The notes beneath the pieces were generated by a model. That model worked only from the letters and a program-made list of their open reading frames with translations. It had not been told where the DNA came from and ran no database searches. This document shows, piece after piece, positions 44,064 to 53,676 of a stretch of DNA of 64,000 nucleotides. The translations under genes and the position numbers were made by a program. The stretch covers positions 14,041 to 78,040 of the forward strand of contig JAFUKH010000025.1 in assembly GCA_017467845.1 (NCBI GenBank), given 5' to 3'. The stretch's first letter is position 1, and every line of letters starts with the position of its first letter. The stretch is from Lachnospiraceae bacterium. GTDB lineage: Bacteria; Bacillota; Clostridia; Lachnospirales; Lachnospiraceae.

Positions 44064-47000
44064 TTAATCTTTTATTTTTGCGGTTCCAATCTTATCAAAG
44101 ATGCCACCGGCATAAGAGTTTCCGTCAGCCTCAAAGGTTACGGTAATTGTATCCTTACCTTCTACAAGTTCTGCAGGAATTTCATAGTAAACATCGTAGA
44201 AATCATCCGGATTTACATTTTCAATCACTTCATCTTCCAACACTTCTCCATCCACGTAGATGCAGAAGCCTCTTCCGGCATCACCACTGAAATATTTCAC
44301 AAAAAGGTAGTTGGTAACACTGTCATCCACCGAGAATTCATAACTGAAATATCCGCCTGAGGCAGCGTCGCGGTAATTTAGACCTTTGTGAGTTCCCGTG
44401 TTTGTCAGGTCACCGTCCAGGTTATGAGAGAATTCGTATTGGTCGTTTGCTACGGGAAGCGAATCAATCACAATGTACTTATCGGATTCATCTTCCACGA
44501 CTTCTGTATTTGCATCTGCTAATTCAAAGTAAATACCATATCTGTTCTGATGCTGCATATAGTGTGGTGAGAATATAAGCTCTTGGTCGGTTCCCTTTAA
44601 TGTGAATTCTAAAGTCCCTTCTGTACGAAGCAGGTTCTCATTTACATTCGCCAGCCATTCTTCGATGGTGGTATCTGTAATTGTAAGCACATCGCTGATT
44701 TCCGTAAACAGAGTAGGGATAGTAACATTTACACCGGTAGTGCCGGTTGCCATGTCTTCATCTCCAAGGTCTGCGCTGAGAACGATAGGTCCATACTTAA
44801 AGGCAACCACATTCTCGTTGTCCGGAAGGTTATAAGCAACTACTTCCATAGGAAGTGTATAGGTGATGGTATCGCCATCTTTCCAGGTTCCTGACAGACG
44901 GATAAAATCATTTACAATATCTGCACTTGCAGCCTGACCGTTAATACTTACGACAGGAGTGTCACATGCCCAGTCCGGAACATAGAGTACGATATCTGCA
45001 GAAACATCTGCGCCGTTAGTATGAATAGTGAAGGAAGAGGTATCTGTATTTGGAATATCGGTTTCCTGTATCAAAGTCAGTCCCTTCTCCTCCCAAGAAA
45101 CCTCGGAAGAAGTAAAGCGGGTTACATAGATACTGCTCTCATCTTTGTAATAAATACTATCCCCCAGCTTGGAGAAGTTCTCCATACCGGAGCCGGTACA
45201 GCACCAGAAATGCCCTGTTGCAGAGCTATATACCTTGAAGTAGCCTGAGGCCATGGGCTGGAAGTAGGTGGTCATACCGGTCTTAGGATTCTGGGAAGAG
45301 AGAATCGCATTGATAAAGGTGTTCTCATAATATGCGGAATATTTGCTGTTACCGGTAATCTTAAACAGCTCCCTGGTCAGCTTTAGCATATTGTAGGTAT
45401 TACAGGTCTCACAGTTACAGTTGGTTCTCTCTGCATCCAGCACATTTGCTTCGCCGAAATGCTCCCATTCGCTGTTGCCGCCGGTGATATAGGTGTGGTT
45501 ATTTACCACGATTTCCCAGAAGTTCTCAGCTACCTGCAAGTAGTATTCCTCGGATTCTCCTAAAACAATATATCTGTTCAATGCGCCGATAATTTTGGGA
45601 ATAGTAGTGTTGGCGTGTAATCCGTTAAGTACATCGTCTCCATTATAAAGAGAGTCAAATAAATTCATTTCATCAAAGCTGTGAGCTGCGGAGAGATGAC
45701 CTTCATCTCCGGTGTGGCTGTAAAGCTGGTACAGGCAGTCGTTCATACCGCCGTATTCCACGTTCAGCACAGTAGCCTGCTTAGCTTCTGTCCAGGTAGA
45801 GGTTCTGGAGTAAACCCAGTCTCCTAAGGAAGAAGCGACAATGAGGGCCTGCTCGTTGCCGGTAAGCTCATAAGTGTCAATCAGCCCTGCGAGTACCTTG
45901 TGCATGGTATACCAAGGTACCCAGGTGCCGGAGGTGTTACCGCTTTCAATCTGGATATAATGGCTTTCCGGAATGGCAGCAAGGTATCCTGTTTCGCTAT
46001 CCTGACACTGAGAAAGCACATCTACAATATGCTCTGTAATAGCAAGAAGCTGAGTGTCTCCGCTGGTTGCATAGGCTTGGGAAAGTGCTGTTAAATAGTG
46101 GCCTAAGGTGTGGCCTTTAATTGCAGAATTTTCCCAGCCGCCATATAGGGTAGCGTCACTTTCCACACCTGCAATATCGCAGAAGCCCTTTAATAATCTG
46201 TCTGCATCCAAAGATTTTAAATAGTCTACCTCTAGGGCGAAAGCATTGGTCTCATAGGAATTCAAAAGGGTAACATTACCCATGGAAAAGTCTGCCAGAT
46301 TTTGAAAATCTGGCTGGGCTTCCACGCAGATGTCAAAGCTTTTTTCTCTGGTATAGTCAGCGTATGAGAGGGTAGCGGTCAAGGTTACTTCTGCGTCATT
46401 CTCTCCGGCTGCAGGTCTGGTTACGGTTCCGTCCGGGCTAAGAACCTTTTCGTCAGAAGAGAACCAGCTAATACTGCTTCCTGCGGAACCCTGCGTAGGT
46501 AGTGCAATATCGCTTTTAACAGATTTCAAGGAAATGCTGAGACTGTCATAATCGGCATCTACTACCTGAGAGCCGTCAAACTGTGCTCCATAAGCCGTGT
46601 AAAGTTCAATAATATCGCTTGAGGAAAGTACCTGATTATAAATGGATAGTTCGTCCATAATCATCTTGGCAAAGCCGCCATTGTACCCCGGAGAGTTAAA
46701 ACCAATGTATTTATTACTGCCTTCATCTGTATTAATTTCCTGAATTTCATTGATGTACTGTACATTCTGGGCAACACCGTTACGATAGATACCGCAGGTA
46801 TGTGTAGCAGAATCGTAGGTGACGGCAATGTGAACCCATTCTCCCACAGGGAAAAATTCAGACCGGCTTCCGGATACAAACATCTCCATTGGCTGTCCGG
46901 CAGATTTTCCTACAGAAAGCTTTAGTGGTGTATTGTTATCCAGACAGGAAAGGTACCAGCCTTCCCCCTGATAGTTTCCGCTGGGTTTAAACCAGGTAAT

Positions 47001-47402
47001 CATATGCTCTCCGGCCAGATTTTCCTCGACTTTTATCCATGATGCGAAGGTGAGTGCTTCCGGCTGAAGAGAAGCGGCAGTACCCAGGTCAATGTATGTG
47101 GACCCGTCAAAGCTCAGTGCTTTGCCGTCAACACCTTCCACATAGACACCATCCTTGTTCAGAACGCCATTGTTACCGGCAGCAGATGAGTCCTCTACAT
47201 TTCCCTCAAAGGAAAGTCCCAGAACCTTGTATTCCTCATATAGTGGTGCTTCCGGTGTTGGAGTGGGTGACTCTGTTTGAACCGGAGCATTTGTTGCACC
47301 CGTTTCGGCTACCGGTACTTCATTCGCAGTTTCCGTGCTGCCTCCGCAAGCAGTTAGTGTTAGGGTCATCAATATTCCCATTAGTAACTGTAACTTTTTC
47401 AT
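44064..47402 (-). CDS. Lipoprotein: LamG-like + Ig-like + GH127/GH146 beta-L-arabinofuranosidase + C-terminal domain
   Basis: Lipobox LTAC; YGGWE, GHTLGHYL, VPWYTMHK, EYGGMN, HANTTIPK, ETCNTYNMLK, FWCCTGSGME. Confidence 0.88.
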   Translation of the reverse strand: MKKLQLLMGILMTLTLTACGGSTETANEVPVAETGATNAPVQTESPTPTPEAPLYEEYKVLGLSFEGNVEDSSAAGNNGVLNKDGVYVEGVDGKALSFDGSTYIDLGTAASLQPEALTFASWIKVEENLAGEHMITWFKPSGNYQGEGWYLSCLDNNTPLKLSVGKSAGQPMEMFVSGSRSEFFPVGEWVHIAVTYDSATHTCGIYRNGVAQNVQYINEIQEINTDEGSNKYIGFNSPGYNGGFAKMIMDELSIYNQVLSSSDIIELYTAYGAQFDGSQVVDADYDSLSISLKSVKSDIALPTQGSAGSSISWFSSDEKVLSPDGTVTRPAAGENDAEVTLTATLSYADYTREKSFDICVEAQPDFQNLADFSMGNVTLLNSYETNAFALEVDYLKSLDADRLLKGFCDIAGVESDATLYGGWENSAIKGHTLGHYLTALSQAYATSGDTQLLAITEHIVDVLSQCQDSETGYLAAIPESHYIQIESGNTSGTWVPWYTMHKVLAGLIDTYELTGNEQALIVASSLGDWVYSRTSTWTEAKQATVLNVEYGGMNDCLYQLYSHTGDEGHLSAAHSFDEMNLFDSLYNGDDVLNGLHANTTIPKIIGALNRYIVLGESEEYYLQVAENFWEIVVNNHTYITGGNSEWEHFGEANVLDAERTNCNCETCNTYNMLKLTRELFKITGNSKYSAYYENTFINAILSSQNPKTGMTTYFQPMASGYFKVYSSATGHFWCCTGSGMENFSKLGDSIYYKDESSIYVTRFTSSEVSWEEKGLTLIQETDIPNTDTSSFTIHTNGADVSADIVLYVPDWACDTPVVSINGQAASADIVNDFIRLSGTWKDGDTITYTLPMEVVAYNLPDNENVVAFKYGPIVLSADLGDEDMATGTTGVNVTIPTLFTEISDVLTITDTTIEEWLANVNENLLRTEGTLEFTLKGTDQELIFSPHYMQHQNRYGIYFELADANTEVVEDESDKYIVIDSLPVANDQYEFSHNLDGDLTNTGTHKGLNYRDAASGGYFSYEFSVDDSVTNYLFVKYFSGDAGRGFCIYVDGEVLEDEVIENVNPDDFYDVYYEIPAELVEGKDTITVTFEADGNSYAGGIFDKIGTAKIKD

Positions 47403-47601: not shown

Positions 47602-48453
47602 ATGAAAGTAGTTAAATTTAATTCTGCATTACCATTTCAATACAATTTTGCAGGAAAATTCACAGCACCCGGCAGTGAGTGGATGCATTTGACCAGACAG
47701 CTCTTTGACTTTGAATTATTTGTAGTTACTGACGGAGTTTTGTATATTGCTGAAAATGAGGTGGAATACGCCGTGAAAAAGGGAGAGTATCTTCTTATGC
47801 CGCCTACATTAAAGCAGCATGGTTATCGGGCCGGAGGGTGTTCTTTTTATTGGCTTCATTTCTATCCTTCCTCTGCATATGAGATGTTGGAAGCAGAAAG
47901 CGCAGGTGCGGCCCAAGACGCTACATCCATCACGGTGCCGATATATGGAGAATTACAATCCTTTGAGCGTATGGTAGTGCTGATGAAACAGCTGCAGGAC
48001 AGTGAACGCCGCTATGGTATGCGTTCGCTGAACAATTTTAGTACTTCGGTGATTTTGGCAGAGCTCAGCGCTCAAAGTTCCATTTATCGTAAATATGATA
48101 ATTCTGACAATAGCAGTCAGTTGTATAACGATATAGTGGATTACATTACATTAAATATTTGCTCCAATCTGAAGGTGGCGGACATTGCAGACTATTTTGG
48201 CTACAATGAGAAGTATTTAACTACATATTTTAAGAAATGGTCCAAGGTATCCATAAAACAATTTATCTTACTGACAAAAATGGAAAATGCCAAGGCGCAG
48301 CTCAGTGAGACCAATCATTCAGTTTCTCAGATCGGATATAACATTGGTTATTCGGATCCCCACAATTTCACCAATGCATTTAAAAAAGTCACCGGGCTTA
48401 CGCCCAGTGACTATCGTGACAGCTATACAAAACGCAGGGCAAATAGTGAATAG
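47602..48453 (+). CDS. AraC-family regulator, divergent from the GH127 gene
   Basis: Cupin N-terminus; IGYSDPHNFTNAFKKVTGLTPSDYR. Confidence 0.9.
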   Translation: MKVVKFNSALPFQYNFAGKFTAPGSEWMHLTRQLFDFELFVVTDGVLYIAENEVEYAVKKGEYLLMPPTLKQHGYRAGGCSFYWLHFYPSSAYEMLEAESAGAAQDATSITVPIYGELQSFERMVVLMKQLQDSERRYGMRSLNNFSTSVILAELSAQSSIYRKYDNSDNSSQLYNDIVDYITLNICSNLKVADIADYFGYNEKYLTTYFKKWSKVSIKQFILLTKMENAKAQLSETNHSVSQIGYNIGYSDPHNFTNAFKKVTGLTPSDYRDSYTKRRANSE

Positions 48454-48458
48454 TGTTT

Positions 48459-50237
48459 TTAGTATCCCTTTATGAGTTCATTGATTTCCTGCTCATTTAA
48501 AAGTACACATTGTTTACCACCGATGGAATAAACTCTCTTACAAATATTCAGTACAGAGGGTCTATGGGTGGTAACAATGGTAGTGCGGGGATATTTGTCC
48601 GCCATGATATTCTGTAAAACCTTTCTTTCGGTAACCATGTCAAGTGCAGAGGTTGCCTCGTCTAAAAGTAGAATGGGGGAGCGCCTTAAGAGTGCTCTGG
48701 CAATGGAGAGACGCTGTGCCTGTCCTTCAGAGAAGCCGCCACCCCGCTCTTTGATTTCACTGTAGATTCCTTCCGGCAGTTTTTCCACAAAGTCCCATGC
48801 ACAAGCCATTTTTAGTGCATCAATGATTTCTTCATCCGTAGCATTTTCCTTTACATTACGCATATTGTCGGCAATGGTTCCGGAGAACATGGTGTTGCCC
48901 TGGGGAACATATGCAAAAAGCTGTCTGGAGGATGCTGTCAAATCCACATGTGGAGCACCGCTTTCCGGAGTGCCGTTTCCGGCACATATATATCCGGCAC
49001 CTTCTTTGGGGCGGATAATGGATAAAAGGACACGGAGCATGGTAGTCTTGCCCTCACCGGATGGTCCCACCAGAGCGATTACTTCATGAGGATGTGCATC
49101 GAAGCTGGCCTGCTCAAAGACTTCGGTGCCGGTAGCGTAGGTATAAGCCACGTTACGGATACTTAAGCCCACACCAATGTCTTTGTTATCATCGAAGAAC
49201 TGCGCTACCTGCTTTTTCTGACTGTAATCCTCCTTGGGAAGATTTACGATACCCATAAGACGCTTGGCAGAATTGGCAAGGTGGATGGTGCTGGGTACAA
49301 AACTGATTAAATTATCAACAGAAGCACTCAACGTAGTGGAGAGGGACAGAAACATGGTCATAGTACCATAGGAAATCTGACCACTCCATACTTTATAGAT
49401 ACCCCAGCCGTAGGCAGAGTAAGAAACAATCATGGAGACAATTGTGAGGATAAAGGTATTAATAATCGTGGTACGTTGATACTTCATGCGCACGTCTGTA
49501 TACTGCTGTTGGAGCATACGAAGTCTCCTGGAATAAAGAGAAAGCATATCAAAGGCTTTAACTGTCTGGATATTAGAAAAAGTCTCTTGATTAAAAGTAG
49601 ACATACGCGTACTGGTGGTGAGGCTGCTCATATTACCCTGCTGTATTTTCTTCATTGTAGTTCTTGAAGTATAGATGCTGATGGGAATACTGATTAAAGC
49701 AAATACCGCGAAAGAAGCATCGTAGTAGAGAACCATGATTAATGCAGAAAAAAAGCGGAAGATATAAATAATCAGATTGGGCAAGGTATTAAGTATTCCG
49801 GAAGAAATGGTGCTTACATCCCCGCTCCATCTGACAAGCAAGTCACCGGAGTGATACCTGGTCAGGGATTCCCAATCCGTAATCAGAATGTCATCAAAAA
49901 TCTGTGCTTTAATGTGATTGTCTATCTTCAAACTTATTTTATTAGAAAGATAACTGGAAATTTGACTGATAACACTGCTTCCCAGAGCAATACCAATCAT
50001 TGTAGCAAAGGTGATCAACAATTCACCGGTGTTGTGTCCGGTAATGATATCTACCAAATCTCTGGAAACCAGACTACTGATTAGAGAGATGACTGTGGTG
50101 GATAATCCCAAAAGGGTATAGATTGCGATGTGGAAAATATGCTGTTTGGCATACTGATAAATCCAGCCCAATTGTGCCAATTTGTCTTGTAGACGCCCAT
50201 TTTTGAGTTGTTTTATATAGTGCATTAACTGAGACAT
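48459..50237 (-). CDS. ABC exporter (TMD+NBD, no C39 peptidase domain)
   Basis: HSGDLL, GPSGEGKTT, FSEGQAQR, LDEATSALD; SD GGAGG before ATG 50237. Confidence 0.9.
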   Translation of the reverse strand: MSQLMHYIKQLKNGRLQDKLAQLGWIYQYAKQHIFHIAIYTLLGLSTTVISLISSLVSRDLVDIITGHNTGELLITFATMIGIALGSSVISQISSYLSNKISLKIDNHIKAQIFDDILITDWESLTRYHSGDLLVRWSGDVSTISSGILNTLPNLIIYIFRFFSALIMVLYYDASFAVFALISIPISIYTSRTTMKKIQQGNMSSLTTSTRMSTFNQETFSNIQTVKAFDMLSLYSRRLRMLQQQYTDVRMKYQRTTIINTFILTIVSMIVSYSAYGWGIYKVWSGQISYGTMTMFLSLSTTLSASVDNLISFVPSTIHLANSAKRLMGIVNLPKEDYSQKKQVAQFFDDNKDIGVGLSIRNVAYTYATGTEVFEQASFDAHPHEVIALVGPSGEGKTTMLRVLLSIIRPKEGAGYICAGNGTPESGAPHVDLTASSRQLFAYVPQGNTMFSGTIADNMRNVKENATDEEIIDALKMACAWDFVEKLPEGIYSEIKERGGGFSEGQAQRLSIARALLRRSPILLLDEATSALDMVTERKVLQNIMADKYPRTTIVTTHRPSVLNICKRVYSIGGKQCVLLNEQEINELIKGY

Positions 50238-50248
50238 TTTAACCTCCG

Positions 50249-50278
50249 AAAAAAGCACCACTGTGTTAGTGGTGCTTT
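50249..50278 (-). terminator. Terminator between the precursor-like gene and the ABC gene
   Basis: AAAGCACCACT/AGTGGTGCTTT stem with a T-run on the minus strand. Confidence 0.75.
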
Positions 50279-50299
50279 CCTGTCCGTGTATTTATAAAA

Positions 50300-50794
50300 T
50301 TAACCGCATGTATAGCTTGCAACTTTACAATAATAAGCATCAGCGTTGTCTTCACCGATAGCACCCTCATAAGTACCACCTGTTTTTCTGGGCAGCTTTG
50401 AAGAGGTAACAATCTCAAAGTTAAAACCAACGCTTTCGGTAGGATTGAAATGGTTATTACGGGTAAGCGTGAAGCTGTATGTACCTACATTAGAAATGGT
50501 AAGACCACTTGCATTCTTAACTTCCTGAATAGGAAAATTGGTAACGAAATTCAGAACAAGAACGGAACCGGAGTGGTTACCACAATGATTACCAGTTACA
50601 TTGCATACAGAGTGGTGACCATTGTTGTGACCTGTCCAGGTACATGTCCAATTAATCCAGCAGTCTTCTGTAACCGCGCCCGGAGCATAAGGATCGGGGG
50701 TGGGGGTTGGATTGTAAGCACCGCTTCCCGCATAGATACCTTCGGCAGTATCTGCTTCTATAGCGAATAAAGCAGGGGTCTCATAAGTTTTCAT
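50300..50794 (-). CDS. Putative leader-bearing exported protein / RiPP-like precursor (164 aa)
   Basis: MKTYETPAL...AEGIYAGSG leader, PTPTPDP linker, beta-rich domain with 6 Cys; no Sec signal; SD GGAGG. Confidence 0.7.
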   Translation of the reverse strand: MKTYETPALFAIEADTAEGIYAGSGAYNPTPTPDPYAPGAVTEDCWINWTCTWTGHNNGHHSVCNVTGNHCGNHSGSVLVLNFVTNFPIQEVKNASGLTISNVGTYSFTLTRNNHFNPTESVGFNFEIVTSSKLPRKTGGTYEGAIGEDNADAYYCKVASYTCG

Positions 50795-50845
50795 AATAAA
50801 TATTCCTCCGCAATTTCAAAATCATTACATATTGTCACATATAGG

Positions 50846-50874
50846 AGTTTAGTCCCAAACCCCAAAAACGTCAA
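50846..50874 (-). promoter_or_regulatory. Sigma-A promoter of the precursor-like gene
   Basis: Minus strand TTGACG-17-TAAACT. Confidence 0.6.
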
Positions 50875-50901
50875 GCAATTGGCGAGAATCTAACAAAAAT
50901 G

Positions 50902-52065
50902 TTAGTTCCTGTCTAAAAATGCGTCGATTTCCTCTTTGATACAAGTAACGGCTTCCTCTGTCTTGGTGCAAAACAGATGACATATGAGAATGTGGTCGGA
51001 AATCTCGCGTATGATATCCAGATTCTTTTTCTGCATGGAACTTGCCCAGGAAGGAGAGACGCTTCGGTGCAATACTAATAATTGCCTGCGCTCCTTAAAC
51101 GGAAAGCCAACTCTGTTTTTCGTTCCCTGATTTAGCAGGATGATGCCGCCAAGCGGATGGGTACGAGTGTCATAAATTCCGGAGGTGCCGCACCAGGGGA
51201 TACCATAAACCACAGGGGTATCCTGGCGTAATGCAACCAGATTTAAGTCTCCGTTTATAATCGGTGTTCCTATGATATCATTCCAAAGTCCGGCATGGGT
51301 GGATTTGCCGGTTCCGGAGGGTGCAGAAAACAGCCATACCTTATCTCGGTAGAGGATGGAGGCGGAGTGAATTGCCAGCATACCGTGAAGCTGGGCAAAG
51401 TACAAAAAGGAAATTCTTATGGCATAAGAGATTTCCGTCGCGGCCTCTTCCGTAAAGAGAGGAGCACAGAAAATTGTGACATTTCGTCCACTTCTGCTGA
51501 CATGTATCTCTGAGATATACTTGGAAGTTGGGAAAAACAGAATATATTTGTCCAATCCTTCAATCACCAGAAGTTCCCCGGTTCTCAGAAGCAAGGTTCC
51601 GTTTTCTGTGTGACTAGGGGGAGCTGCCTGGATGCGTATATCCTGAATCGGGGCATCATCCGGGAATTCTACCGATGTTTCAAAGCTGAGAAGCTCTCCG
51701 GCGAAGGCCTCCGCGGGTCCATAGAGCCGGCAGAAGAGTCCGGCGATTTCCAAGGATTTATACAAAGGGATGCTGTTTGCTGTGCTTTCTTCCGGTAGCA
51801 GGATATCCATCTGCTGGAGCGATTTCACAAAGCTTGTCGTAGTCGCTTCCAAAATGTCATATTGCTCGGTCGGGCAACGGAAATGCTCTGCACATAGATT
51901 AATAAGCTCTTGGGTTGAGGATACGTTTTCTAAGTTTTCCCAAAGAAATACGCTGGTCTCGTTCAGGCGTACATCGTGTTTAAAGTCTGCGTTTGCCTGT
52001 CCGAAAGCCAGTAAATAGGGAAGTTCCGCGATATATTCCAGGTGATAATAGGGGTTGCGTCTCAT
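50902..52065 (-). CDS. PqqD/RRE domain fused to an HPr-kinase-like P-loop domain
   Basis: N-terminal LNETSVFLWENL...ELINLCAEHF...FVKSL (PqqD pattern); C-terminal HSAS, FSAPSGTGKSTH, INGD, YGIPWCGTSG. Confidence 0.8.
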   Translation of the reverse strand: MRRNPYYHLEYIAELPYLLAFGQANADFKHDVRLNETSVFLWENLENVSSTQELINLCAEHFRCPTEQYDILEATTTSFVKSLQQMDILLPEESTANSIPLYKSLEIAGLFCRLYGPAEAFAGELLSFETSVEFPDDAPIQDIRIQAAPPSHTENGTLLLRTGELLVIEGLDKYILFFPTSKYISEIHVSRSGRNVTIFCAPLFTEEAATEISYAIRISFLYFAQLHGMLAIHSASILYRDKVWLFSAPSGTGKSTHAGLWNDIIGTPIINGDLNLVALRQDTPVVYGIPWCGTSGIYDTRTHPLGGIILLNQGTKNRVGFPFKERRQLLVLHRSVSPSWASSMQKKNLDIIREISDHILICHLFCTKTEEAVTCIKEEIDAFLDRN

Positions 52066-52224
52066 GGATGATTCACTCCAACTTAAGTCTATGGTACTAT
52101 ATCTCTATTATACGGGTTTGCAGGGAAGGGGGCAACATAGATTTTACCGGGATTTGGGCAAAAATATTTGCTATCCGATGGCTGCATGTCGTACAATGCT
52201 ATAAGATATTATGGAGGTGAGCGT

Positions 52225-52671
52225 ATGGCTTATCGGGTGGCAATTTGCGATGACAGTACGCCGGATGCGGAATTTGTACAGAGCATTTTAAAGGATTGGG
52301 CGTTAGAGAGGAATGTAGTCATTCAGACAGAGGTTTTTCCCTCTGCGGAGAGCTTTTTGTTTCATTATGAGGAGAATAAGTCCTACGATATTCTTCTTTT
52401 GGATATCGAAATGGGAGCCATGGATGGTGTGGCTTTGGCCAAGGCAGTGCGTAGAGATAATGAGACTGTGCAGATTGTGTTTATTACCGGGTATTCCGAG
52501 TATATAGCGGAAGGGTATGAAGTGGCGGCACTTCATTACCTGATGAAACCTGTGAATAGGGAGAAATTGTGTGCCGTACTGGATAGGGCATTGGAAAAGC
52601 AGAGGCAGAACGAGAGCGTTTTAAATTTGGCATTGTTCGGGGAAATGGTGCGTATACCACAGAAATATTAA
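52225..52671 (+). pseudogene. LytTR response regulator truncated after the receiver domain
   Basis: Receiver intact (ICDD, LLDIEM, YLMKP); stops at GEMVRIP where the LytTR domain begins (compare 10078..10794). Confidence 0.75.
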
Positions 52672-52713
52672 TACCTCAGGTGTGATGTGACAGTTCATCC
52701 CCTGATTTGAACG

Positions 52714-52748
52714 ATTCGTCCCCGGAATGAGCCGGGGGCGAATTTTTG
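52714..52748 (+). terminator. Intrinsic terminator
   Basis: ATTCGTCCCCGG/CCGGGGGCGAAT followed by Ts. Confidence 0.7.
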
Positions 52749-52752
52749 TGTT

Positions 52753-52839
52753 ACTATTCAGAGACATGCAGATTGCTGAAAATAGGATGAGCAAGCTTGT
52801 TTGCAGCAATCTATATGGCGAGTAGCCATGCAATGAGCA
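52753..52839 (+). repeat. Hairpin element copy E, 3'-truncated
   Basis: ACTATTCAGAGACATGC..GCAAGCTTGTTTGC..TATATGGCGAG..GCCA..ATGAGCA aligns with the 5' two-thirds of copy C. Confidence 0.7.
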
Positions 52840-53676
52840 GAGTGGCCGGAGCCTTTTTGTTATGAAGAAGGAGAGTCACTTCCCAAGGATTTAGACAATG
52901 ATTATGAACTTTGCTTGGAAGATGTAAGCTATCGTTACCCAGAGGCGGAAAATGATACGATAAAGCATATGAATCTGACCATAAAACCGGGAGAAAAGCT
53001 GGCAATCGTGGGTCTCAATGGTGCAGGAAAAACAACGTTGGTAAAGCTGCTTTGCGGATTTTTAGACCCTACAGAGGGAAGGGTTCTTTTGAATGGTGAA
53101 GATATCCGCAAGTACAATAGAAGGGATTACTATGACTTATTCTCAGCGGTATTTCAGGACTTCTCCGTGCTGGAGGCCAGCGTGGCGGTAAATGTAGCGC
53201 AGAATGTGGATAACATTGACGAAAACAGAGTTCGGTTGTGCATAGAAAAGGCTGGCCTTACAGAAAAGGTGAATTCGTTGCCGGCGGGAATTGACAGTAA
53301 GATTGGCAGACAAATCTATGAGGATGGAGTAGAGTTGTCGGGAGGTCAGACCCAGATACTTATGCTGGCCAGAGCTTTGTATAAGGATGGTGCAGTGCTG
53401 GTATTGGATGAGCCAACGGCGGCATTAGACCCCATCGCAGAAAACGATATCTATCATAAATACAGTGAGATGACTAAGGGGAAGACATCTCTATTCATAT
53501 CCCATCGTCTGGCATCTACGCGCTTTTGTGACCGGATTTTATTCCTGGAAAATGGGGAAATCGCGGAAGAGGGGACTCATGAGTCTCTACTGGCTTGGGG
53601 CGGTGGATATGCAAAGCTGTTTGAGGTACAGAGCAGATATTATAAGGAAGGGGGAGAGAACAATGGAGAAGACTGA
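52840..53676 (+). pseudogene. ABC exporter remnant (linker + NBD only, TMD deleted)
   Basis: Frame opens at EWPEPFCYEEGESLP after an in-frame TGA; NBD paralogous to 11656..13503; no SD or proper start. Confidence 0.8.

Follow-up and report, generated by a model that had tools for sequence, protein, structure and literature searches.

The linear polyphosphorylated peptides (LPPs) of Bacillota, published in May 2026 (Popov et al., Nat Commun 2026, PMC13381572), form a family that was found through the gene of its peptidase, LppS, and whose final product and role are unknown according to the authors. The LPP gene set comprises the archaeal-type signal peptidase LppS, the discrete RiPP recognition element (RRE; RiPP, ribosomally synthesised and post-translationally modified peptide) LppB, the HprK-like kinase LppK, the nucleoside triphosphate (NTP) transferase LppN and the MsbA-like exporter LppD, and is often located inside capsule loci; the cluster studied was lppA-K-B-S-D-N of Paenibacillus alginolyticus DSM 5050 (PMC13381572). 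Here, we analyse a related three-gene cassette on the minus strand of a 64,000-nucleotide stretch of a Lachnospiraceae genome (contig JAFUKH010000025.1, hereafter the window), which encodes an RRE-kinase fusion protein, a leader-bearing protein of 164 aa (the putative cargo) and an ATP-binding cassette (ABC) exporter. We estimate at about 60% the probability that this cassette is related to the LPP pathway as a minimal form without a peptidase that acts on a small protein instead of a peptide, with phosphorylation, leader binding and export predicted by analogy.

The LPP precursors (35-200 aa) carry the common motif YxxPxVLxHQxIxFETxxS, in which the Y lies 14 residues upstream of the E, cleavage occurs after the T and the Ser is polyphosphorylated. 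LppK adds several phosphates to Ser+3 of LppA, just past the conserved E-T, and LppS, which requires LppB and prefers the phosphorylated precursor, cuts after Thr-1. LppN was silent in the heterologous host. RRE-kinase fusions are not discussed in the LPP paper, and its supplementary table contains few Lachnospiraceae peptidases, from unstudied side clusters with discrete RREs (PMC13381572 for all of these points).

Paeninodin-type lasso peptide clusters encode a B1 RRE, a B2 protease, a C cyclase, a D exporter, a kinase and a nucleotidyltransferase, and their precursor Ser is polyphosphorylated (PMC13381572, PMC7533575). The cassette resembles them in its B1-like RRE fold, its HPrK-like kinase and its ABC exporter, but its conserved Ser is located near the leader-core junction and not at the C-terminus, and its precursor is a 164-aa protein with a folded domain. 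A precedent for the RiPP-like handling of a protein is QhpC, the gamma subunit of quinohemoprotein amine dehydrogenase, a leader-bearing small protein whose modification takes place in the cytoplasm and whose export relies on a dedicated ABC transporter and not on Sec. QhpC differs, however, by its radical S-adenosylmethionine (SAM) thioethers, its subtilisin-like leader peptidase, its Gram-negative hosts and the lack of an RRE-kinase.

The original prediction, made on the letters of the window, described the three genes as a candidate for an undescribed modification and export system. The claim of novelty goes too far, because the LPP family (PMC13381572) follows the same logic (i.e., RRE, kinase, exporter and [Y/W]xxP leaders), which makes the cassette an LPP variant. 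What is new here is the modelled three-domain enzyme, the CBM2-like cargo fold with its covarying cysteines, the split between loci with and without a peptidase, the unequal divergence of the three genes and the conserved, putative attenuator.

The enzyme, the cargo and the exporter

The three minus-strand open reading frames (ORFs) are found at 48459-50261, 50300-50794 and 50902-52065 in the ORF list of the window, in agreement with the original prediction, and the HSAS, GTGKST and INGD motifs that it had pointed out are present. The genes and their domains are as follows.

50902..52065, minus strand: RRE-kinase fusion gene, 387 aa (ORF, PF05402 at 27.1 bits, AlphaFold2 model)
51790..52065, minus strand: RRE (PqqD-like winged helix) domain, residues 1-92 (VIA-align to RiPP RREs)
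51391..51774, minus strand: middle beta-rich domain, residues ~98-225 (aligns, together with the kinase domain, to ATP-dependent PEPCK)
50905..51384, minus strand: HPrK-like P-loop kinase domain, residues 228-387 (HPrK/P fold, invariant motifs)
50720..50794, minus strand: cargo leader, residues 1-25 (aromatic-xx-P-x-L, then E18-G-[VI]-Y-A-G-S24-G25)
50663..50719, minus strand: variable Pro-rich linker of the cargo, residues 26-44 (pLDDT, the per-residue model confidence, <50)
50300..50662, minus strand: CBM2-like beta-sandwich core, residues 45-164 (pLDDT ~90), with the stop codon
48459..50237, minus strand: MsbA-like ABC exporter, a half-transporter with a transmembrane and a nucleotide-binding domain (NBD) (PF00664 and PF00005; no peptidase domain)

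The N-terminal domain of the 387-aa protein is a genuine RRE, predicted to bind the leader. Residues 32-86 match the PqqD family PF05402 above the cut-off (gathering score 23.4). In an AlphaFold2 model based on an alignment of 28 family members (A2; mean pLDDT 89.6), residues 1-92 superimpose with VIA-align onto the lasso B1 proteins TbiB1 (5v1u_A; Z 10.9, root-mean-square deviation (rmsd) 2.7, 84 residues aligned) and FusB1 (6jx3_B; Z 10.7, rmsd 2.4, 83 aligned), followed by the RiPP RREs of PqqD, NisB, MibB, TbtB, CteB, MccB and PbtF. A single-sequence phmmer search of the PDB with the 387-aa protein gave nothing useful. Only the family profile reached the LPP-pathway RRE LppB (9x8z_B, E = 0.005), its best PDB match, then TbiB1 (E 0.02) and the paeninodin-type PbaB1 (E 0.09). 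The predicted complex of the full RRE-kinase with cargo residues 1-45 (score 0.01, mark 0.32) speaks neither for nor against binding.

In the model, the C-terminal part is a P-loop kinase of the HPrK/PEPCK fold with predicted activity, in line with the kinase-like P-loop domain proposed beforehand. Residues 228-387 align to HPrK/P structures with Z 10.3-11.2, the best being 1ko7_B (Z 11.2, rmsd 2.7, 123 aligned) and further ones 3tqf, 1jb1 and 1knx, and residues 94-387, which include the middle domain, align to the ATP-dependent PEPCK 1ii2_B (Z 13.8, rmsd 5.0, 250 aligned); Foldseek also returns PEPCK and HPrK/P. The protein contains the motifs IHSAS, SGTGKST and INGD, and among the 28 sequences H233, S236, G251, G253, K254, T256 and N271-G272-D273 are invariant, as is the P-loop G-x-G-K-[ST]-T. 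The NCBIfam match to HprK_rel_A (HprK-related kinase A) is weak (E = 0.004). Homologues of the RRE-kinase fall into 2321 clusters at 90% identity, many of them labelled PF05402 and PF27840 'ScmC'; a literature search on ScmC and SynChlorMet returned nothing relevant.

The 164-aa protein starts with MKTYETPAL...AEGIYAGSG and has no curated family match in Pfam or NCBIfam, apart from a weak DUF5972 match covering residues 1-10. Its homologues form 39 clusters of 54-100% identity, all of 159-180 aa, and a profile search of 1.8 billion representatives recovered 67 clusters at 50% identity, of which nearly all are 130-180 aa long and match from residue 1. An alignment of 29 family sequences (A1) reveals a 25-residue leader, a non-conserved Pro-rich linker and a well-conserved domain of ~120 residues; the linker, measured from the SG to the first C or W, spans 14-36 residues in 27 of the 29 members. 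The leader follows the pattern M-K-x-[FY]-x-x-P-x-L ... E18-G-[VI]-Y-A-G-S24-G25, in which E18, S24 and G25 are invariant (29/29). An aromatic residue lies 13-15 residues upstream of the Glu (13-14 in most sequences), and the Ser at E+6 is also found in 41 of the 47 representatives of the wider superfamily set. The YxxPxL motif that had been read in this leader therefore stands as an aromatic-xx-P-x-L strand of looser form, position 4 being F in 25 and P7 being kept in 22 of the 29 sequences. Leader residues 1-30 had no match among PDB chains.

As anticipated, the protein has no Sec-type hydrophobic stretch (maximal Kyte-Doolittle mean over 15 aa, 0.78), and residues 1-25 have a net charge of -3; these two values led to the rejection of a Sec or lipoprotein signal. 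A double-glycine leader was likewise rejected, because its hydrophobic residues would have to be spaced differently and the exporter lacks a C39 domain.

The folded core proposed for this protein is supported by its AlphaFold2 model at ~120 aa: residues 1-42 are disordered and residues 45-164 form a beta-sandwich. Its top VIA-align matches are CBM2 chitin- and cellulose-binding modules (Z 8.6-9.2, rmsd 2.4-3.0, 90-104 aligned), which also lead the Foldseek search of the PDB (E ~1e-3), and ESM Atlas returns CBM_2 clusters. At the sequence level, neither the A1 profile against the PDB nor the A1 members against Pfam matched CBM_2 (PF00553), giving only weak DUF7055 and DUF5972 matches, hence the CBM2 likeness of the core is a resemblance of fold only. 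The known modules (1exg, the Cellulomonas fimi Cex CBD; 2rtt, Streptomyces Chi18aC; 6bt9, Bacillus thuringiensis ChiA74) share with the cargo a beta-sandwich of ~100-120 residues, and the cargo core has conserved tryptophans and covarying cysteines at both ends: C45 and C163 are both present in 26 sequences and both absent in 3. CBM2a modules have a terminal disulfide, and the covariation of C45 and C163 resembles what is expected for the terminal extracytoplasmic disulfide of a secreted module. In contrast to CBM2 modules attached to an enzyme, the cargo module stands alone, and we know of no CBM2 counterpart of its motifs H-N-x-G-x-H-S and N-H-F-N-P. The modelled fold suggests glycan or cell-surface binding.

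The exporter ORF encodes 600 aa (592-600 aa with the alternative start), and translation probably begins at the ATG at 50237, downstream of a GGAGG. ABC_membrane (PF00664) begins at residue 46 and is followed by ABC_tran (PF00005). The protein aligns to the models of peptidase-bearing bacteriocin exporters only from about profile position 148, thus it has no C39 domain, as had been claimed, and differs in this from the exporters of C39 bacteriocin systems. Its best NCBIfam matches, all under the cut-off, are MsbA_rel, CydD and MsbA.

The lasso-B1-like RRE, the YxxPxL-like strand at the start of the leader and the weak DUF5972 match at residues 1-10 would also be expected of a lasso peptide or double-glycine bacteriocin locus whose remaining genes lie elsewhere in the genome. 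Genome searches make this reading scarcely credible, and they agree with the absence of a lasso cyclase and of a B2 protease noted earlier. No cyclase is found beside the cassette, the Asn_synthase matches of the genome being on other contigs (C75, C10, C69, C24 and C32) that are distinct from those with PqqD matches (C9, C51 and C35), and the only PqqD match above the cut-off is the cassette's own. The sole Transglut_core3 (PF13471) match scores 22.6 against a cut-off of 26 bits and lies on another contig. With neither cyclase nor B2 protease, the cassette is not a lasso cluster; moreover, its exporter lacks a C39 domain and its 120-aa core is a conserved folded domain.

Conservation of the trio and comparison with LPP loci

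The order RRE-kinase, cargo, ABC exporter is kept in all six species-representative loci that encode an A1-type protein (L019-L024, from Acetatifactor and other Lachnospiraceae metagenome-assembled genomes (MAGs)), and the same adjacency occurs in G132, a 99%-complete Lachnospiraceae genome. Considering also the 39 cargo clusters, this arrangement is not due to chance, and the neighbourhood survey bears out the expected tight linkage of leader-bearing homologues to RRE-kinase and ABC genes. The flanking AraC gene is common to three of the six loci and the response regulator to two. Identity to the window ranges from 45 to 64% for the RRE-kinase and from 53 to 63% for the cargo, against 76-84% for the exporter and 91-92% for the AraC flank, indicating a much higher rate of divergence for the recognition enzyme and its substrate than for the pump and the surroundings. 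This unequal divergence hints at specificity co-evolution or conflict.

A hairpin (stem GCACCACT/AGTGGTGC, followed by a T-run) lies between the cargo stop codon and the ribosome-binding site of the exporter, with the same stem sequence and position in the window and the six related loci (7/7). Across the seven species the stem reads GCA[CT]CACT / AGTGGTGC. The flanking proteins share only 53-84% identity, yet the stem is kept, so the hairpin may act through recognition of its sequence as well as through its structure. Its location fits an attenuator giving an excess of cargo over pump. The cargo ATG (50794) is preceded by a GGAGG 11 nt upstream. The regulatory sites of the cassette are the following, and the two promoter-like sites are candidates only, because the regional number of such sites equals the shuffle expectation.

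50249..50278, minus strand: putative terminator/attenuator hairpin in the cargo-ABC gap, stem of 9-12 bp (core AGCACCACT / AGTGGTGCT) and T-run
48387..48412, minus strand: terminator-like hairpin at the cassette end, 11-bp stem with 7 GC pairs and T-run, 47 nt past the ABC stop codon
52107..52135, minus strand: candidate promoter-like site TTGCCC-17-TATAAT upstream of the RRE-kinase gene, matching the consensus at 10 of 12 positions
50846..50874, minus strand: candidate promoter-like site TTGACG-17-TAAACT upstream of the cargo gene, matching at 9 of 12 positions

Public sequencing runs for the source comprise four gut-metagenome DNA runs from one study and no RNA runs.

The cassette shares with the LPP pathway a PqqD-type RRE, a kinase of the HprK-like type, an MsbA-like exporter and the lack of a cyclase, as well as a leader in which an aromatic-xx-P strand is followed, ~13-14 residues on, by an invariant Glu and then by a conserved Ser. 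It differs from it by the fusion of the RRE to the kinase, by the lack of an LppS-type peptidase and of an LppN nucleotidyltransferase, and by its Lachnospiraceae host, the LPP hosts being Bacilli. Compared with the published LPP motif, the cargo leader has no HQ, and beyond its Pro-rich linker the cargo continues as a conserved, folded CBM2-like domain and not as a 45-aa linear peptide.

Fused RRE-kinases of 41-45% identity to that of the window occur in five further loci (L002, L003, L028, L029 and L030) with an exporter of 57-61% identity. Each of these loci encodes between one and five proteins of 130-160 aa that bear the same leader as the cargo (M-K-x-Y-x-K-P ... E-G-V-Y-A-A-S-G, ending in EGVYA[AG]SG), followed by a short linker or none and by unrelated cores. 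They carry a 148-154-aa peptidase resembling archaeal signal peptidase I (TIGR02228, E = 9e-7), whose S, H and D are at positions matching the LppS triad, and lie among polysaccharide genes. Large NTP_transf_5 proteins and Stealth transferases accompany them in L002, L028 and L029 and were not seen in L003 and L030. Apart from the fusion of their RRE to the kinase, these peptidase-bearing loci of Clostridia agree with the LPP definition, while the window cassette, having neither LppS nor NTP_transf_5, corresponds to it only in part.

A search with the LppS-like query P0160 finds copies in four other fused-kinase genomes; in G014, G162 and G153 the copy directly adjoins the fused kinase, and in G035 it lies elsewhere. 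No LppS-like gene was found in the window's genome (86% complete; best E = 0.118), in the 99%-complete G132 or, within 8 kb, in any of the six related loci; NTP_transf_5 (PF14907) likewise had no match at E <= 1 in the window's genome, at that completeness. The cassette thus differs from the loci and genomes that keep the peptidase by lacking peptidase, NTP_transf_5 and Stealth, and peptidase-less A1-type cassettes are cleanly split from peptidase-bearing loci with other cores. The E-G-V-Y-A-[AG]-S-G block shows the same conservation whether or not the peptidase is present, and for this reason it more likely serves as a determinant for the kinase or the exporter than purely as a cleavage site. 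As a speculation, the Pro-rich linker, whose length sets the peptidase-less subfamily apart, would fit a phosphorylated tail that is retained on the product.

A split form is found in L026, where a 92-aa PqqD protein, a 288-aa ScmC-type kinase (sharing 37% identity with residues 159-381 of the window RRE-kinase), a cargo of the A1 superfamily and an exporter are encoded separately. BLASTP detected no significant similarity between this discrete PqqD and the fusion protein, the RREs having diverged beyond the reach of pairwise comparison. Of 200 Lachnospiraceae genera sampled, roughly a dozen have fused forms.

The missing peptidase and nucleotidyltransferase, together with the visible truncation of the neighbouring LytTR/ABC module, could mean that the cassette is what is left of a full LPP or lasso cluster, decaying and no longer functional. 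This is very improbable, since the three ORFs are intact in the window, in the six relatives and in G132, the catalytic and leader residues are invariant and the regulatory hairpin is conserved; furthermore, 39 cargo clusters at 54-100% identity denote purifying selection on the core.

The resemblance of the exporter to MsbA-, CydD- and PglK-like families, the location of related loci within polysaccharide gene sets and the richness of the core in conserved His and Cys could also be explained if the exporter carried another substrate, such as a lipid-linked glycan, and the 164-aa protein were an intracellular regulator, an immunity factor or a metal binder. We regard this as improbable: the minimal cassette keeps its trio order in seven of seven genomes without glycan genes, the predicted attenuator would couple the transcription of cargo and pump, and the two terminal cysteines covary, as would those of the disulfide in secreted CBM2 modules. 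In addition, the homologous LPP exporter is part of the core peptide gene set (PMC13381572).

A possible route of phosphorylation and export

On the reading of the cassette as a peptidase-less LPP relative, the RRE would bind the aromatic-xx-P-x-L strand of the 25-aa leader, as its fold and the motif suggest, so that the block E18-G-V/I-Y-A-G-S24-G25 would be held at the fused kinase and Ser24 phosphorylated one or more times with ATP. Ser24 is proposed as the target by analogy with LppK acting on Ser+3 of LppA. The still-unfolded precursor would then leave through the MsbA-like ABC half-transporter, as the conserved trio suggests, and outside the cell the 120-residue CBM2-like sandwich would fold and its terminal cysteines would pair. 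In the absence of a dedicated leader peptidase, the phospho-leader and the Pro-rich linker might stay on as a tail or be trimmed by a housekeeping protease, while the conserved cargo-exporter hairpin would set a high cargo-to-pump ratio.

Several points weigh against this proposal. Phosphorylation, leader binding and export of the cargo are predictions, and because the kinase domain falls short of every curated family cut-off (HprK_rel_A being far below its 200 bits), activity and substrate are deduced from fold and motifs. The conserved Ser is at E+6 in the cargo as opposed to E+4 in LppA, and a Gly instead of a Thr follows the Glu, which makes the analogy of register with LppA imperfect. A beta-sandwich with up to three cysteine pairs is moreover encoded here by a strict anaerobe, and its conserved His and Cys residues, among them H56, H61, H70, H74 and C64, could instead bind metal. 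Finally, in a genome that is 86% complete a distant peptidase or nucleotidyltransferase could be missed, although G132 argues otherwise.

The joining of leader-binding and NTP-binding domains in one chain would equally suit an ATP-dependent holdase or gatekeeper, which passes the unfolded cargo to the exporter without phosphotransfer to it, or an enzyme that phosphorylates the exporter or itself. The nucleotidyltransferase and LppS, which use or prefer the phosphate in the relatives, were not found here, leaving no obvious later use for it. A role of this kind is nevertheless unlikely, as the Ser is found at a fixed spacing from the Glu in all 29 family members and most superfamily members, the N-G-D motif beside the P-loop is invariant and the characterised enzymes of the clade (i.e., LppK and the paeninodin-type kinases) all phosphorylate a precursor Ser (PMC13381572).

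Beyond the reading of the cassette as an LPP relative, a wider one is possible but distinctly tentative. RiPP leader recognition could have been reused for the Sec-independent secretion of small folded proteins in monoderm gut bacteria, in which the RRE-kinase would license the cargo by Ser phosphorylation and the ABC transporter would export it with the phospho-leader attached. In the fuller relatives, the phospho-Ser might serve as an attachment point for a sugar phosphate or polysaccharide, and the leader-bearing proteins of 130-170 aa would constitute a family of secreted or surface-anchored proteins.

If the cassette belongs to the LPP pathway, it would be its simplest form, with one enzyme, one cargo and one pump, and its cargo models confidently as a folded domain. 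It would hence offer a clean system to address the purpose of the serine phosphate, the ABC export of a whole domain and the retention of a RiPP-type leader on the product. With 2321 RRE-kinase clusters and fused forms in about a dozen of the 200 genera, the answer would apply to many gut and rumen anaerobes.

Neighbouring genes and related loci

Within the window (52168-53676), the divergent response regulator next to the cassette has 167 aa compared with 232-255 aa in L020 and L021, and the ABC gene that follows encodes a 253-aa piece limited to the NBD and overlaps a 670-aa ABC ORF. The shortened regulator and the NBD-only piece give the neighbouring LytTR/ABC module a degraded look. On the other side, just beyond the convergent AraC gene, a protein of 1112 aa with a lipoprotein-like N-terminus (LTACGG) is encoded at 44064-47402 on the minus strand; this protein and the AraC gene appear to belong to the host flank and not to the cassette.

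Upstream of the split set of L026 (1-5800), a second pair of PqqD and ABC genes was observed, along with a papain-like (Peptidase_C1) protein of 1177 aa with Flg_new repeats. In the locus L030 (8001-16000), which adjoins PelG and glycosyltransferase genes, the fused RRE-kinase is present as two paralogues alongside a single LppS-like peptidase and a single exporter, and five proteins of 130-158 aa bear the leader in front of unrelated cores.

A distant member of the cargo superfamily with the same leader type, P0212, is encoded on a 5.8-kb contig (L027, 1306-1764), where it adjoins a phage-type lysozyme/amidase gene and a RuvC-like gene, with no RRE-kinase or ABC gene seen downstream, and may be a phage-borne copy. 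The fused RRE-kinases P0104 and P0135 (L003) come from MAGs labelled Candidatus Gastranaerophilales, which implies either that the system is not confined to Bacillota or that these contigs were mis-binned. The A1 core profile also matches repeats in proteins of 514-1889 aa (P0189, P0201, P0205, P0225 and P0228); those of P0201 are Thr/Asp-rich, like the repeats of surface proteins, and the match may be driven by composition.

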